In this document: piece by piece, positions 16,384 through 22,514 of the stretch
Position numbering within the stretch: position 1 is the first letter of the stretch
Layout: the number at the start of each line of letters is the position of its first letter
Origin: a virus
Lineage: Duplodnaviria > Caudoviricetes
DNA length: 64,000 bases
IMG/VR virus record: IMGVR_UViG_3300025936_000020
Location: 1-64,000 of that record
Direction: 5' to 3' (one strand)
Notes under the pieces: model-generated
Seen by the model: only the letters and a program-made list of their open reading frames with translations
Databases searched by the model: none
What the model was told of the DNA's origin: nothing
Position numbers and translations under genes: made by a program

Positions 16384-17052
16384 ATGAAGCGGGGCACTCC
16401 AGAGCACCCAAAGGTCGGCCATCTCGCTTCACTCTTAAACATCAATCATGCCTGGGCTATGGGAATACTGGAGGCTATGTGGCATTTCACCGCAAGATAC
16501 GCTCCGCAAGGGGACATCGGAAGGCATGCGGACTTGGTCATCGCGAAGGCAGTGTACTGGGAGCGACCGACAGGTGAGAGGGGAGTGAAGCCTGAGTGCA
16601 AGCTAAGTGGAGCCTTAGTGACCGCCAGGTGGCTCGATACGTCGACCATACATCGCCTAATAGTGCACGACTGGTCGGACCATGCAGATGAGGCAGTTAG
16701 GAAATTCTTGTCGAGACACAGTCTCGACTTTGTCCGGACTGAGTCTAGCCTGCCTTTGCCTTTGCCAGTACCAGTGCCTTTGCCAGTACCAGCGACGGAC
16801 GCAGACCCGACTTTCGAGCAGGCGATGGATAGAGTTCCGATCCAACTCCGTGAGCAAGTGAGAATGGATTTTGCCAGGCATGTATTCGATGCCTGGAGCA
16901 GCGTGGACGGCAAGAACGGGGCCGGGGTTTCCTGCCGGTTCGAAAAGTTGCTCCAGAAACGATGGAACGCCGAAGGAGAACAATGGCGGAACGGGTGCCA
17001 TTCAGCTCAGAAAAAACCGCAATCCACTCAGTCGCTAGAAAACCAGATCTGA
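16384..17052 (+). CDS. phage replication initiator / replisome organiser-like protein
   Basis: MKRGTPEHPK...GILEAMWHF...IVHDWSDH N-terminal domain and Pro-rich linker; lies upstream of the primase-helicase. Confidence 0.7.
   Translation: MKRGTPEHPKVGHLASLLNINHAWAMGILEAMWHFTARYAPQGDIGRHADLVIAKAVYWERPTGERGVKPECKLSGALVTARWLDTSTIHRLIVHDWSDHADEAVRKFLSRHSLDFVRTESSLPLPLPVPVPLPVPATDADPTFEQAMDRVPIQLREQVRMDFARHVFDAWSSVDGKNGAGVSCRFEKLLQKRWNAEGEQWRNGCHSAQKKPQSTQSLENQI
16748..16792 (+). repeat. tandem repeats within the initiator gene (LPLPLPVPVPLPVP); possible iteron-like ori
   Basis: tgcctttgccagtaccag twice in tandem (16757-16792), preceded by partial copies. Confidence 0.55.
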
Positions 17053-17057
17053 CTTAC

Positions 17058-17285
17058 ATGGGCCTCGCCAAACTCAGCGATTTGGTCACCAACATCGGGG
17101 AATGCGTTTACAAGCCAGCCGAACAGTGCTTCTACTGCGCCGATCCGCTGGGCGGCGATGTGTGGATTTTCTGGAACGGGACCGACTGTCAGATCTGGAT
17201 GCACCCGGCGTGCGCCAAGAGGCTGGCCGATAATCTGAACAAGGACTGGGAACGGTTCAAAGTAGCCTGCCCAGAGCTTCTATGA
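17058..17285 (+). CDS. small Zn-finger protein
   Basis: CFYC...HPAC. Confidence 0.65.
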   Translation: MGLAKLSDLVTNIGECVYKPAEQCFYCADPLGGDVWIFWNGTDCQIWMHPACAKRLADNLNKDWERFKVACPELL

Positions 17286-18955
17286 CCAAAACATCCGAGC
17301 TGGCCGCTGAAATTAAGCGCCGCCTTAAACTGACCGATCATCTGGCCGGCAAAGGATTCAGAGTCACGGAAAACAAACACCCACGAACCAACCTTTGCCC
17401 GGTCGCCATGCACCGCAAAGGCCACCTGTGCGTGTCAATTGACACCGAGAAGCAGCTTTGGCACTGCAACGATCACGAAATCGGCGGGAGCATTATTGAC
17501 TGGATCATGGCCGAGCGTGGCAAAACGATGGAGCAGGCCGTGATTGAGGTCGGCACTGAATTGGGACTGGTGGAGTCCGAGGAAGAAAAGAGGCCTGTGT
17601 CAGCAAGACCTTCCATCGTTGCCACCTACGATTACACCGATCCGAATGGCAACCTGCTGTTCCAGGTTGTGCGTTACGCCCCGAAGGAATTCCGTCAGAG
17701 ACGCCCTGACCGAGAAGGCGGCTGGATCTGGAACATGGAGGGGATCAACCGCGTGCCGTACCATCTCCCGGAAGTCCTAACCGCTGAAACCGTCGTTATC
17801 ACGGAGGGGGAGAAGGACGCTGACAACATCCGGTCCTGCGGATTCGGGTTCACTGCCACCTGCAACGTCGGCGGGGCCGGTAAATGGCTGGACGCCTACT
17901 CGGAGTTCGTCTCCGGAAAGAACATCGTCGTCATCCCGGACAACGACGATCCCGGCCGAAAACACGCCGAGGCCATCATCAAATCTCTGGATGAGAAGGT
18001 GAACTGGCTGAAGCTCGTCCAGGTGCCGGCGCCTTACAAAGACGCCTCCGACTGGCTGGATAGCATCGAACCTAGCGCCAGGGCATGTTCGCTCCGGGAT
18101 CTGATCGAACGGACCCCGCACACCCTGAAACCACTGCCCGTCTTCACAATGGCCGAGTTGGAGGCGCAATACGTCGAATTCGCGCGATCGGTCGAAACCC
18201 GGACATTTGACCTGGCCCGGTTCATCCCGTCGCTCGGCCGCTCCGTCCGCCGCCTGATGCCCGGTGAACTGGTAGTCGTCATGTCCGATACCGGTGTAGG
18301 CAAAACCGCAATTCAACAATGCCTGGCCCGGTCCGCTGCCCCGCTACCGACCCTGTTCTTCGAACTGGAACTCCCGCAGGAACTCATGTTCGAACGGTTC
18401 GTCCAGATGGAAACCGCCTGGACGTCGGAGCACGTCGAAGCGCATTATCTGACTCAATGCGGTTTGTGGAGAACTTTCGAACACCTGAACCACATCCTCG
18501 TCTGCGCCGAGAGCGGCTTATCGACCGTGCAGATCGAATCTTTCATCGGTCGCAGCGAGCTCAAAACCGGCACCAAACCGGCCGTCGTCATCATCGATTA
18601 CATCGGCCTTATCCGCGGCGAAGCGTCCCGCAGCCGCTACGAAAAGCTCAGTGCTACCGCCGAAGAACTCAAGGTAATCGCCAAACGTACGCGAACGATC
18701 GTCGTTCTCGGAACCCAGGTCGCGCGCCCGGAGAAAACCAAGGATTCACTCGCGCCCAGGCTCCACGACGCCAAAGACTCCGGATCCATCGAAAACTCAG
18801 CCGGCCTGGTTCTGGGCGCCTGGCGGCCCGATCATCAAACCCTAATGATCAAAGTCCTGAAGAACACCAAGGGAAGATCCGGCATCGTCGTCGAGTGCAA
18901 TTTCGACGGCGAAACAATGCAGCTCACCGAACGCGATCAGAGGAGATTCTCGTGA
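17282..18955 (+). CDS. primase-helicase (Zn-binding, TOPRIM and DnaB/RecA-like domains)
   Basis: CPVAMH...WHCND Zn region; VITEGEKD and VIPDNDDPG TOPRIM motifs; SDTGVGKT Walker A, VVIIDYIG Walker B, KNTKG. Confidence 0.9.
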   Translation: MTKTSELAAEIKRRLKLTDHLAGKGFRVTENKHPRTNLCPVAMHRKGHLCVSIDTEKQLWHCNDHEIGGSIIDWIMAERGKTMEQAVIEVGTELGLVESEEEKRPVSARPSIVATYDYTDPNGNLLFQVVRYAPKEFRQRRPDREGGWIWNMEGINRVPYHLPEVLTAETVVITEGEKDADNIRSCGFGFTATCNVGGAGKWLDAYSEFVSGKNIVVIPDNDDPGRKHAEAIIKSLDEKVNWLKLVQVPAPYKDASDWLDSIEPSARACSLRDLIERTPHTLKPLPVFTMAELEAQYVEFARSVETRTFDLARFIPSLGRSVRRLMPGELVVVMSDTGVGKTAIQQCLARSAAPLPTLFFELELPQELMFERFVQMETAWTSEHVEAHYLTQCGLWRTFEHLNHILVCAESGLSTVQIESFIGRSELKTGTKPAVVIIDYIGLIRGEASRSRYEKLSATAEELKVIAKRTRTIVVLGTQVARPEKTKDSLAPRLHDAKDSGSIENSAGLVLGAWRPDHQTLMIKVLKNTKGRSGIVVECNFDGETMQLTERDQRRFS

Positions 18956-19871: not shown

Positions 19872-20420
19872 ATGCCTGGAACTCGTTCATATAAACGGCT
19901 CTGGCCAAAGCGCAATCGAGGCTTCTGGCACGGCGCTAAACCACTGGACATTCCGTCCGGCGGCCGGTTCCTGCCAAACCAAACACGGCTCCTCCGAGCG
20001 TCGAACGAGTTCTTCACAGCAGGTGCCGTCTGGCAGCGCAAGGACGGCCAATGGTCTTGCATCCAAGCCGCCCCAATTCTTGCGTGGATGTTCAAATTAA
20101 CCCCAACAGCAGCCAAACTCGAACTCGCCAGAAAAGGCTGCTCATGGGAATGGATTTCAGTCGGTCCAACCGGGATTCTTGGCGCCCCTACGGCTCCCGG
20201 CGTGTTAGAGCGGAATAGCCCAGCGAGCAGTACGCCCCACGTTAATCAACCCAACGTCCCACTCAAGGCCCTCAAGGTTCGGCTCCCAGGAGAGCCTACT
20301 GAAAGCGCACGTTTACTCTGCGCTACCCCAGGGGTACAGGTGAAACCCCACGGCGGCAGCTTTACCGGTAATACCCGAGATCTGCCCACCAGAGCGCCCT
20401 CAGACTCAATGCCATCGTAG
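19872..20420 (+). CDS. hypothetical protein
   Basis: Core FFTAGAVWQRKDGQWSCIQAAPILAWM is protein-like; the C-terminus is low complexity. Confidence 0.55.
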   Translation: MPGTRSYKRLWPKRNRGFWHGAKPLDIPSGGRFLPNQTRLLRASNEFFTAGAVWQRKDGQWSCIQAAPILAWMFKLTPTAAKLELARKGCSWEWISVGPTGILGAPTAPGVLERNSPASSTPHVNQPNVPLKALKVRLPGEPTESARLLCATPGVQVKPHGGSFTGNTRDLPTRAPSDSMPS

Positions 20421-20714
20421 TCACGGCCAAACGCCATCTGGCCATCGCGCTTTTTCTGGTGCTGCTATATTTGCAGGGGGGAGAATTGTCTCTCCATCGT
20501 ACGGGCTTCATTGGAACATTGTCCAGAAGATTATGCCACAGAGAGGCTGAGTCGCGCATAGACTCCCCTATCGCGAGGCCACATGATACGGGCACACCCC
20601 GCCCCCCCCGGCCTGGATTGCGCTCATCTAACAGCAACCGTTTAAGCCAAGCCATAACTGCTTGACTTACAACGTTTTACGCAAGGAACTTGGGTCTATT
20701 CCATTCAGATTCAG

Positions 20715-21660
20715 CACCTTGCAAGGGTGTCGAAATGACCGCTCTGTTAGCAAGTTCTATTCCATTCGATGCCGACGAGTTTCCCCGATGTTGGAAGCGA
20801 GTGTTTCCCGCGTGATTGCGATTCCCCATACCATACTCTACTTCGAGTTGAGGTCGTCTAAACTGGGCAAAGCCGACGCGAGACGAAGCCGGATCAAAGT
20901 TGAACGTGTGTGCGGCCAGTCGGCCCCACCATCGTTGCGACTCACCGTCTGAAACCCGATGCTTGACGAGCTAACGCGGCTCAAGCGTAACACGGGATTA
21001 AGCGGTGACAGGGACTGTCAATCTGTCACCGTCAAAGACAGGGAACAATCGCGCAACGCTTCCTCGCAAGGGGAATTAGCAGACAGGGACACACGAACGA
21101 CCGCGAGAGTAGTTCCCGTGAAAACCGATAGTCCACAAAATCGTTATGCGTTTCCGCTTGGGCGGCGATGGAATAACCGACTTCACGGGAAGCAAGCCCC
21201 ATCTCGACTTGGAGGTGGGGAAAGCCGGATTGCCAGTAAGCCTACGGTATTCCCGTAGCAGGAGCACAATCACGGCAAGGTCGAGTCCTTCTTGCTTGAA
21301 GCCTACAAACGGAGAGAACAAGCCCAGCAAATGCCCGTGTTGAGACGGGCAGGGCCGTTAGCGACGGCAGGGCTTGGGATGCTGTCTCAAGTGCTCAATC
21401 AACTTCTTCGGCGGTGACAATAAGGCGGTACGTCCATGCCTTGCGCGTGGCGCGAATCGGCGGAAGGTACTTCTCACCAACTAACGCTCGAACCTACCGG
21501 ACACGAAGTAAAACAAACAGAGTCAATGGTGGCCAGTACGGTGGCCATTACTCAATTCATTCGCTTCTGACTTGGAAGCAATTTCACGCCAGTTGGCGTG
21601 TCTCGCTGGTTTAGTAGCCTCAGGGAGTTTCCAGCGAACAGGGAGCATGTCTCCCAATAA
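20715..21660 (+). ncRNA. candidate large structured non-coding RNA
   Basis: At least 12 hairpins, long-range stems, GNRA loops and G-U pairs favouring the + strand; no convincing ORF. Confidence 0.65.
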
Positions 21661-21679
21661 CGTCCCAAGGTTCCAAGTT

Positions 21680-22363
21680 ATGAAGAAGAACGAACAAAGC
21701 GGTACGTCCACGCCCAAAGCACCTGAACCTGCAAAGGAATCAGCGGTGGTGTACGACTTCCCGAGGGTCCAGGATGTCACGCCGGAATCTCCGGTGGTAT
21801 TCGGGGACAGAAAGGAATCGTTGCAGGTGTCCGATACTGAACGGGTTGAAATTGATGCGTATTTCTTCGCGTCGAAAACCAACCTGAAGTTGAAGAACAT
21901 CAAAACCGCGCTGAACGGTCTCAAAAAGCAGGGGGTGAAACTTCCTGACGGCAAGGAGATCGGGCAGAAGTGGTTCAACGATAATGTCAGGGACCCGTTT
22001 CACAAGGTCCTGAGGTACGCGGCGCGATTCTCCATTAATCACGGCGCGCCAGTGTCGTTGGCATTCACCAAGCGGCTGAACAAGGATACCGGGGTGATTA
22101 CCACCACGGCGAAACACGGGTTCGAGTTCAAGTCGGAACCAACGAAACCGGCGGAAGTCGAGGACAAAGCGGACAAAGCGGCGGACAAAACCGCGAAGAA
22201 GGAAACGTCCAAGTCTAAGACACGGGCGAAACGGCAACAGGGGAAGAAAAACCTGCAACCGTTGGTCAGTCCTGAAGCGGCAAATCGTATCGACGCGCTG
22301 ATCGAAAAGACGGCGGCGGACAAAGCGGCGAACGGTGCACCTGCACCTGAACCCGCGAAGTAG
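21680..22363 (+). CDS. first early gene, Lys/Ala-rich hypothetical protein
   Basis: 227 aa from ATG 21680; followed by a terminator. Confidence 0.75.
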   Translation: MKKNEQSGTSTPKAPEPAKESAVVYDFPRVQDVTPESPVVFGDRKESLQVSDTERVEIDAYFFASKTNLKLKNIKTALNGLKKQGVKLPDGKEIGQKWFNDNVRDPFHKVLRYAARFSINHGAPVSLAFTKRLNKDTGVITTTAKHGFEFKSEPTKPAEVEDKADKAADKTAKKETSKSKTRAKRQQGKKNLQPLVSPEAANRIDALIEKTAADKAANGAPAPEPAK

Positions 22364-22392
22364 TCGGAAGCGAAATTGGTTCGAGGTTCACG

Positions 22393-22429
22393 GCCTCTGC
22401 CCCTGGAAACGGGGGCAGGGGCTTTTTTT
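22393..22429 (+). terminator. rho-independent terminator
   Basis: gcctctgcccct-ggaaac-gggggcaggggc followed by T7. Confidence 0.85.
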
Positions 22430-22514
22430 GTTTGTTCCCTCGGCGGCCTGGCGGATAAACGGGCTGCCGATGGGGCGAAACCTTTGGCGGAAAGGAAAAG
22501 GAGAAAGGAAATCT

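Follow-up and report, generated by a model that had tools for sequence, protein, structure and literature searches.

A kilobase-sized structured RNA directly upstream of a single gene in metagenomic phages

Analysis of a 64-kb stretch of phage DNA (hereafter, the window), which covers positions 1-64,000 of a 74-kb IMG/VR virus record (IMGVR_UViG_3300025936_000020; approx. 95% complete), revealed a non-coding element of approx. 1.13 kb (20549-21715, + strand), located directly upstream of a gene encoding a protein of 227 amino acids (aa). Comparison of 14 homologous loci supports the view that this element is a large functional structured RNA, read from the + strand, that lies outside every described class: covariation among the homologs is strong, a loop contact co-varies and no Rfam family is matched. 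An initial annotation of the window had suggested a functional RNA of possibly a new class in this region, and this suggestion was supported. With moderate confidence, we interpret the new large ornate RNA as the 5′ leader of a single-gene unit, the fold of which gates translation and which, together with the encoded protein, constitutes an RNA-protein module. From the sequences we infer that the element is transcribed, that its functional strand is the + strand, that it acts as a switch and that it binds protein.

Homologous loci and limits of the element

DNA was fetched around relatives of the 227-aa protein and around a conserved 17-mer, which gave 14 distinct homologous loci, all originating from metagenomic phages. 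In every one of them, a gene-free gap of 1.1-2.1 kb is located directly 5′ of the same gene. Collinear with the window, the gaps show 66-85% identity in blocks, with insertions and deletions of any length between them. In three loci (L038, L045 and L052) the genes located farther upstream are on the opposite strand, and therefore the gap goes with the downstream gene and not with the replication genes. The RNA was never met without this gene, to which it is always oriented in the same way, also in loci whose upstream genes face in the other direction.

A profile search (nhmmer) detected exactly one copy of the element per locus and no match in 41 pattern-matched loci of bacterial genomes and viral contigs. 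Scans of genome collections produced only chance pattern matches, with no homolog recognized by nhmmer, and a blastn search of the region against 50,697 phage records gave no match. Pattern and protein scans of IMG/VR identified only one other viral contig. The whole 74-kb genome carries a single copy, as revealed by a search with the covariance model R1 (see below).

In the window, the element is preceded by a replication module on the + strand, comprising an initiator-like gene (16384-17052) and a primase/helicase gene (17282-18955), the latter with distant matches in Arthrobacter phages only. Small open reading frames (ORFs) extend as far as position 20420 and are followed by approx. 1.25 kb without a credible ORF; the 227-aa gene begins with an ATG at 21680 and ends at 22363 (+ strand). 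The initial annotation had judged the ORFs of the non-coding region to be spurious, and we reached the same conclusion. In comparisons with five homologs, substitutions were spread evenly across the three codon positions and the reading frames were not preserved, so protein coding in 20662-20952, in 20959-21258 and in the other ORFs was rejected.

The extent proposed originally (20715-21660, corresponding to an RNA of 650-950 nucleotides [nt]) proved to be too short, since the conserved element reaches from 20549 to approx. 21715. Its 5′ part is composed of two segments:

20549-20616, + strand: Block A, the most conserved 5′ block, GAGUCGCGCA..CCnUAU..CACCCCGCYCCCC..GG
20617-20779, + strand: variable linker/insert, which only the window, L044 and L052 have in a long form, that of the other loci being short; holds the hairpin at 20715

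All 12 full-length homologs, the distant L038, L039 and L052 among them, carry the sequence AGTCGCGCA of Block A at a distance of 1034-1322 nt 5′ of the gene start. Upstream of Block A no conservation was detected among the homologs, and in several of them the terminator of the preceding unit is located there. The RNA probably has its 5′ end region in Block A. We rejected the possibility that it is a repeated phage promoter, as it occurs only once in the window.

Two further observations concern this part of the element. In L041, L044 and L043 only, a candidate promoter (TTGACA, or GTGACA in L044, separated by 17 nt from CATAGA/CATAAG), absent from the window, is present approx. 95-130 nt 5′ of Block A. 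Moreover, positions 2785-3057 of L052 resemble window positions 20515-20780 (the long 5′ insert), while the rest of the L052 RNA is much more diverged; this common 5′ insert suggests recombination within the element.

Compensatory changes among the homologs

The decisive evidence for a structured RNA is comparative and does not come from the folding of a single sequence. The latter is only modestly better than that of shuffled sequences (z = −3.3 on the + strand and −2.6 on the − strand, 20 shuffles), which alone would make a weak claim.

For an unbiased test, nine full-length homologs were aligned by sequence only (MAFFT E-INS-i) and the alignment was folded with RNAalifold. The consensus comprises 227 pairs in approx. 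45 helical segments, with 86% of the cells paired. As many as 103 of the 227 pairs are compensatory, i.e. at least one sequence is altered on both sides and the pair is kept. As the main null, the whole prediction was repeated on 22 alignments with columns shuffled within conservation and gap classes, which gave 33.6±5.9 compensatory pairs (maximum 46). The consensus energy (−330.8, versus −199±8.8 in the null) is approx. 15 standard deviations better. Sliding the 3′ partners by 1-3 columns left 36-45 compensatory pairs and approx. 40% pairing, while shuffling of the 3′ letters among the sequences left 57.7±4.4.

A covariance model (R1), built on positions 21402-21559, detects all 14 homologs (E values of 1e-12 to 1e-37) and gave no match in three loci that have only the helicase in common. 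In the R1-derived alignment (A8), 94.1% of the cells are paired (71.3±1.6 in shuffled controls), 85 cells carry double changes (26.7±4.5 when shuffled, at most 16 when slid) and the covariation score is 0.614, versus 0.203; none of 500 shuffles reached the observed values. The A8 counts lean towards the model because this alignment is fitted to R1; the sequence-only result is free of such a bias. The covariation among homologs that the initial annotation had named as a check is thus present, with base pairs held by compensatory substitutions significantly, and indeed far, above both shuffled and slid controls.

These data bear on the simplest alternative, namely that there is no functional RNA and that the region is an ordinary promoter/operator or an unannotated small-protein region with chance hairpins. 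The modest z of the single sequence (−3.3, 20 shuffles) would fit this, and the repeated 22-nt motif described below could be an operator. However, 103 compensatory pairs were observed where 34 were expected, the z of consensus folding is approx. −15, the A8 pair counts are far above their controls, there is no codon signal, and length and block order are kept over 1.1 kb in sequences of only 66-77% identity. We therefore consider this alternative effectively refuted.

The functional strand

The functional RNA is very probably located on the + strand, as judged from several features of the aligned sequences. Stable tetraloops (GNRA/UNCG) number 10 of 68 on the + strand and 2 of 72 on the − strand, in agreement with the initial annotation. 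Nine of 12 homologs fold more stably as the + strand, by 37-57 kcal/mol in the distant ones, and conserved + strand terminators are located on both sides of the unit. The constant orientation of the element towards the gene also favours the + strand. The original claim that G-U pairs favour the + strand was upheld only in part: among the variable pairs of the model-fitted A8, G-U outnumbers A-C by 24 to 5, whereas in a strand-symmetric test, i.e. the helix pairs of a symmetric hairpin aligner, the difference is small (58 versus 52, including the two invariant A·C discussed next). Counts of G-U versus A-C made on a folding program's own structures are biased, because such a program favours the G-U pairs of the strand that is folded.

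The helix 20817-28/20864-75 contains, in each of the nine homologs, two invariant A·C juxtapositions next to co-varying pairs; on the − strand these positions would be G·U. Protonated A+·C pairs or a conserved internal loop could explain them, or else they could hint at the other strand.

A functional RNA on the − strand would be an antisense or divergent transcript, running from near the 5′ end of the gene to the G-rich complement of Block A. We regard this as very improbable. It would account for the two invariant G·U positions and for the balanced symmetric count, and in the window and two homologs the − strand folds slightly better. The − strand also obtains a similar RNAalifold score, which is expected, since helices look alike on both strands. 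The stable tetraloops, the A8 variable pairs and the better + strand folding, especially of the distant homologs, all argue against it, as does the lack of a terminator at the would-be 3′ end of such a transcript, in a unit that is flanked by conserved terminators of the + strand.

Link between the element and the downstream gene

The initial annotation had placed the RNA between the replication module and the early genes. The element is not a separate gene between modules, but is physically and structurally joined to the gene that follows: the start codon of the 227-aa gene is paired within the last domain of the element, and a conserved terminator follows the gene. The features concerned are the following:

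21565-21685, + strand: Domain VIII, in which the anti-start strand CUUCUGACUUGGAA (21565-79) pairs with the translation start region UUCCAAGUUAUGAAG (21669-85)
21680-22363, + strand: partner gene, encoding a 227-aa protein of a family that was not recognized
21419-21440, + strand: copy 1 of a 22-nt repeat, AAUAAGGCGGUACGUCCAUGCC, located in the leader
21693-21714, + strand: copy 2 of the 22-nt repeat, GGUACGUCCACGCC, corresponding to codons 5-12 of the 227-aa gene
22392-22433, + strand: intrinsic terminator that closes the unit (14-bp G+C stem, GAAA loop, U7)

The start codon and the 12 nt preceding it pair with a conserved strand located approx. 105 nt upstream, forming a helix (21565-79/21669-85) of 13 bp, so that the start codon and the ribosome-binding region lie within a conserved helix. 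Both sides of this helix are invariant among the close homologs. Compensatory variants occur in L038 (CUGGAAU/AUUCCAG), in L051 (CUGAAUCC/GGAUUCAG) and also in L052. Since the last domain pairs the start codon and the nucleotides before it, the default fold would hide the translation start.

Both copies of the 22-nt repeat hold their position in most of the close homologs, and four homologs carry a third copy approx. 105-115 nt 5′ of the start codon. The sequence GGUACGUCCACGCC is nearly invariant, including its synonymous positions, though the homologous proteins are only approx. 50% identical; codons 5-12 (21693-21714) thus look as if they are under constraint at the RNA level inside the coding region.

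A strong terminator is present within approx. 60 nt past the stop codon in all 13 homologs that could be scored for one, and therefore the unit consists of the leader and one gene.

On this basis we propose the following scheme. The transcript would be approx. 1.9 kb long, its first 1.13 kb being the leader, followed by the 227-aa gene and the intrinsic terminator. The leader probably gates translation of the gene and/or forms a complex with its protein. The upstream fold would have to change in order to open the translation start, and the opener could be a factor that is bound or sensed, or else the gene's own basic protein binding to the repeated motif; the 22-nt motif, present in the leader and in codons 5-12, is accordingly named here as a candidate binding or switch site. 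RNA and protein would probably form one module, possibly a ribonucleoprotein.

Several points weigh against this scheme. Known cis-regulatory leaders are several-fold smaller, and the size of the element is unexplained for a simple translational gate. No promoter for the unit was identified in the window, Block A not being recognizable as a sigma-70 promoter, and fold searches recognized no RNA-binding fold in the 227-aa protein. The covariation support of the start helix comes from three distant homologs, because the close homologs are invariant on both sides. The symmetric G-U/A-C count, the similar RNAalifold score of the − strand and the invariant A·C positions, all given above, belong here as well, and both protein binding and the switch are purely inferential.

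The element could instead be a free-standing, trans-acting RNA of the GOLLD/ROOL kind, freed by termination or processing near hairpin VII (21520-53), with a gene that is merely co-located, and it possibly would form a multimer by means of the loop-loop contact described below. Its size and ornateness, which are beyond the need of a translational operator, speak for this, as do the U-rich runs that follow hairpin VII in L041, L046, L045 and L050 and the fact that the co-varying kissing loops of ROOL proved to be intermolecular (10.1101/2024.12.08.627333). However, the window has no U-run after hairpin VII and a terminator scan calls no terminator there, conservation and co-varying helices extend across 21565-21715, involving the start codon, and the element was never found apart from the gene, in a fixed orientation. 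We consider a free RNA unlikely.

A role of the element as part of a replication origin was also weighed; in this case, opening or priming of the origin would fall to a structured transcript or to single-stranded DNA, in the manner of the ColE1 RNA II pre-primer. Cumulated over the whole window, the GC skew reaches its global minimum at 20-22 kb, i.e. at the non-coding region, where its sign changes. Since the flanking genes on both sides are on the + strand, this change of sign is not due to gene orientation; it may mark a replication origin or a mosaic boundary (20000-22000). In addition, the element is always located beside replication genes (primase/helicase, initiator or, in L038, a Phg_2220_C protein) and Block A contains a conserved C-run. 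Phage GC skew, however, often tracks gene content and not replication. There are no iteron arrays (only three two-copy repeats) and no A+T-rich unwinding stretch (G+C minimum of 0.52); the covariation of the pseudoknot, the stable tetraloops and the tolerance of G-U fit RNA better than duplex DNA, and the tight tie to the start codon and terminator of one gene would not be expected of an origin. An origin is, in our opinion, quite improbable. As to the skew itself, the + strand genes at 17-21 kb show negative values, which turn positive past 21 kb.

Architecture of the RNA

The leader that we favour is predicted to fold into eight domains with approx. 25 helices, including a three-way junction and a loop-loop or pseudoknot contact. 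The support of a helix is given below as the number of pairs with double changes out of the total number of pairs in the sequence-only RNAalifold alignment.

20780-20916, + strand: Domain I, with hairpins 20794-98/20803-07 and 20888-99/20906-16, helices 20808-13/20876-82 and 20817-28/20864-75, and conserved junction sequences
20919-21084, + strand: Domain II, closing helix 20919-25/21078-84 (5/7)
21108-21189, + strand: Domain III, helix 21115-22/21182-89 (7/8) around conserved AACCGAUAGUCC and hairpin 21152-57/21162-67
21190-21297, + strand: Domain IV, closing helix 21190-96/21291-97 (6/7)
21298-21318, + strand: single-stranded junction, near-invariant CUUGAMGCCUACNAACGGAGAGAAC
21319-24/21371-76, + strand: P1 of the three-way junction (6/6)
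21333-37/21346-50, + strand: P2 of the three-way junction, with the loop UGUUGAGA
21354-58/21364-68, + strand: P3 of the three-way junction, with the invariant loop UAGCG
21340-21405, + strand: pseudoknot or kissing contact of the P2 loop UUGAGA (21340-45) with UCUCAA (21385-90) or with the CUCAA loop (21394-98)
21406-21508, + strand: Domain VI, closing helices 21406-11/21503-08 and 21412-15/21496-99 (4/4), with conserved ACAAUAAGG
within Domain VI, + strand: helix 21424-27/21485-89 and hairpins 21434-39/21443-49 and 21459-67/21472-78
21509-21553, + strand: linker with A-rich conserved UAAAACAAAC, and hairpin VII with the stem 21520-34/21540-53 (4 double-change pairs; helix 6 of R1)

Within Domain I, double-change pairs number five in 20794-98/20803-07, three in 20808-13/20876-82, five in 20817-28/20864-75 and four in 20888-99/20906-16. 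The hairpin of Domain III (5/6) has an invariant UUGG loop. Domain IV contains, inside its closing helix, a hairpin 21197-203/21214-20 (5/7) with GNRA loops in several homologs, a helix 21224-30/21271-77 (6/7) with a variable interior, and a hairpin 21278-81/21287-90 (3/4). Domain VI is kept in the distant homologs L038, L039, L051 and L052. In Domain VIII, the inner hairpins 21585-88/21597-600, 21604-09/21631-36 and 21641-45/21651-55 have four, three and five double-change pairs, respectively, the last corresponding to 5/5.

The interior of Domain II (20930-21075) occurs in two unrelated forms, one shared by the window, L044, L015 and L045 and the other by L005, L041, L046 and L037. Both are enclosed by the same co-varying closing helix, which suggests the swapping of RNA sub-domains.

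The comparative data sort the individual stems listed in the initial annotation. Its 10-bp stem (21113-22/21182-91) is the helix of Domain III (7/8 pairs with double changes). All of the listed hairpins fold in the window; 21197-220 and 21276-96 (the latter as 21278-81/21287-90) are conserved by covariation, whereas those at 20715, 20961-86, 21003-31 and 21242-58 are located in lineage-variable inserts and are not conserved features. No covariation was seen for the long-range stem 20771-81/21401-12, which is also imperfect in the window; positions 21406-15 pair instead with 21496-21508, and this pairing is compensated even in distant homologs (CUUCG/CGAAG replaced by GCGUG/CACGU). A long-range helix of the RNAalifold prediction (20780-93/21303-17) was rejected, because it has no compensatory changes, one of its sides being variable and the other invariant.

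The three-way junction and the loop contact

The multi-way junction proposed at 21321-74 is a true three-way junction (P1, P2 and P3) supported by covariation. Double changes are carried by 6/6 and 5/8 pairs of the junction (21319-21376), and the junction is present in the minimum-energy fold of most homologs.

The pairing of the P2 loop UUGAGA with UCUCAA, which had been put forward as a pseudoknot, was corroborated: loop and partner co-vary in six forms across the homologs (loop given first):

window: UUGAGAC/GUCUCAA
L005: GUUGAGC/GCUCAAC
L044: UUUGAG/CUCAAA
L046 and L037: UUGGU/ACCAG
L045: UUGAA/UUCAA
L050: UGCG/CGCA

The partner segment is located just 5′ of a conserved CUUCGG. The alternative partner in the window, the loop CUCAA, tops the hairpin 21389-92/21402-05, the stem of which co-varies. 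Because the partner is the loop of this small hairpin (window 21389-21405) in several homologs, the contact may be a kissing loop.

Comparison with known RNAs

The Rfam check proposed in the initial annotation gave no family. No match at the gathering score was found in the 64-kb window with cmscan against all 4227 families of Rfam 15; at E≤10, the region 20300-21900 produced only noise (a plant miRNA with E = 2 and NiCo with E = 6.6), and seven homolog loci gave no match at E≤0.1. The models of GOLLD, ROOL, OLE, HEARO, raiA, group I and II introns, RNase P and tmRNA are among those that matched neither the window nor the seven homolog loci. A search of the literature found no description of this RNA, and the searches of phage records gave no relative from a cultured phage. 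In kind, the element resembles the known large ornate phage RNAs; in effect, it is a new RNA class.

The known large RNAs share several traits with the element. Like GOLLD and ROOL, it is phage-encoded, very large and multi-domain, with pseudoknots or kissing loops supported by covariation. It also combines a conserved 3′ part with a variable 5′ part, as described for GOLLD (10.1101/2024.12.08.627333). It is longer (approx. 1.13 kb) than GOLLD, many members of which exceed 800 nt, and whereas GOLLD usually occurs beside tRNA genes in phages and prophages (10.1101/2024.12.08.627333), the element is located away from tRNA islands; ARAGORN detected neither tRNA nor tmRNA genes in the window. It further differs from both GOLLD and ROOL in being joined to a protein gene, the start codon of which it pairs, and in being met only in approx. 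14 metagenomic contigs.

In the autoregulatory leaders (of ribosomal-protein genes and of T4 gene 32, regA and gene 43) and in riboswitch platforms, a structured 5′ leader likewise masks the translation start, and the possible repetition of a recognition motif in the leader and at the coding start is a further similarity. Such leaders range from tens to approx. 250 nt, in contrast to approx. 1,130 nt and approx. 25 helices in the element, which matched no cis-regulatory family of Rfam. ColE1 RNA II is similar in being a long folded transcript by replication functions, and the element is at the GC-skew minimum; unlike RNA II, it is without evidence of an origin, an RNase H site or an antisense regulator, and it runs into a translated gene.

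The partner gene of OLE adjoins the OLE RNA. The element resembles OLE in this arrangement of an RNA beside a partner gene, which suggests a ribonucleoprotein. OLE is, however, a bacterial RNA (Firmicutes) of approx. 600 nt with a membrane-protein partner, while the putative partner in the phages is a soluble basic protein of 227 aa. OLE itself, likewise large and ornate, functions together with proteins dedicated to it, OapA among them (10.1101/2024.12.08.627333).

Large ornate RNAs are rare, and GOLLD, ROOL and OLE each revealed an unexpected RNA architecture, RNA-only nanocages being among those described (10.1101/2024.12.08.627333). With the element, a further class would join them, one exceeding GOLLD in length and strongly supported by covariation from just approx. 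14 sequences. Unlike GOLLD, ROOL and OLE, it is wired to one protein gene, with the start codon in the fold and a motif common to the leader and the coding region; these two features provide a testable functional handle (translation control and RNA-protein binding) that GOLLD and ROOL lack. The element also flags a protein family without a known fold as a probable RNA partner, and it indicates that kilobase-scale structured RNAs remain hidden in soil phage metagenomes.

A more far-reaching reading, which we put forward as a tentative and rather doubtful one, is that the element represents a giant RNA machine of a new class, namely an approx. 1.1-kb sensor or ribonucleoprotein core that is possibly catalytic or self-assembling. 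It would be the largest structured non-ribosomal phage RNA known and would control, and cooperate with, a protein whose fold is novel, possibly when phage DNA replication starts, in view of the GC-skew minimum and the neighbouring replication module.

The partner protein

In the 227-aa protein, a disordered N-terminus precedes a compact alpha/beta core, which is followed by a long C-terminal helix rich in Lys, Arg and Ala. It has no match in Pfam or PHROG, and tblastn against the phage records gave none. Its relatives, 17 in a collection of 5.8 billion proteins and 29 cluster representatives in a library of 1.8 billion, are all metagenomic, and none carries a Pfam domain.

The core (window 21785-22138) was modelled with a predicted local distance difference test (pLDDT) score of 93.8 and a predicted template modelling (pTM) score of 0.79. 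This model matched no structure of the Protein Data Bank (Foldseek, E>0.1; best Z of 3.7 in a full structural scan of representatives). Fold searches with the model of the whole protein gave no informative match, and a protein atlas gave no usable one. Judging from the model, the core may represent a new fold.

In two loci, a second gene-free gap of approx. 800 nt is located 3′ of the partner gene (L037, 5723-6510; L038, 5633-6436).

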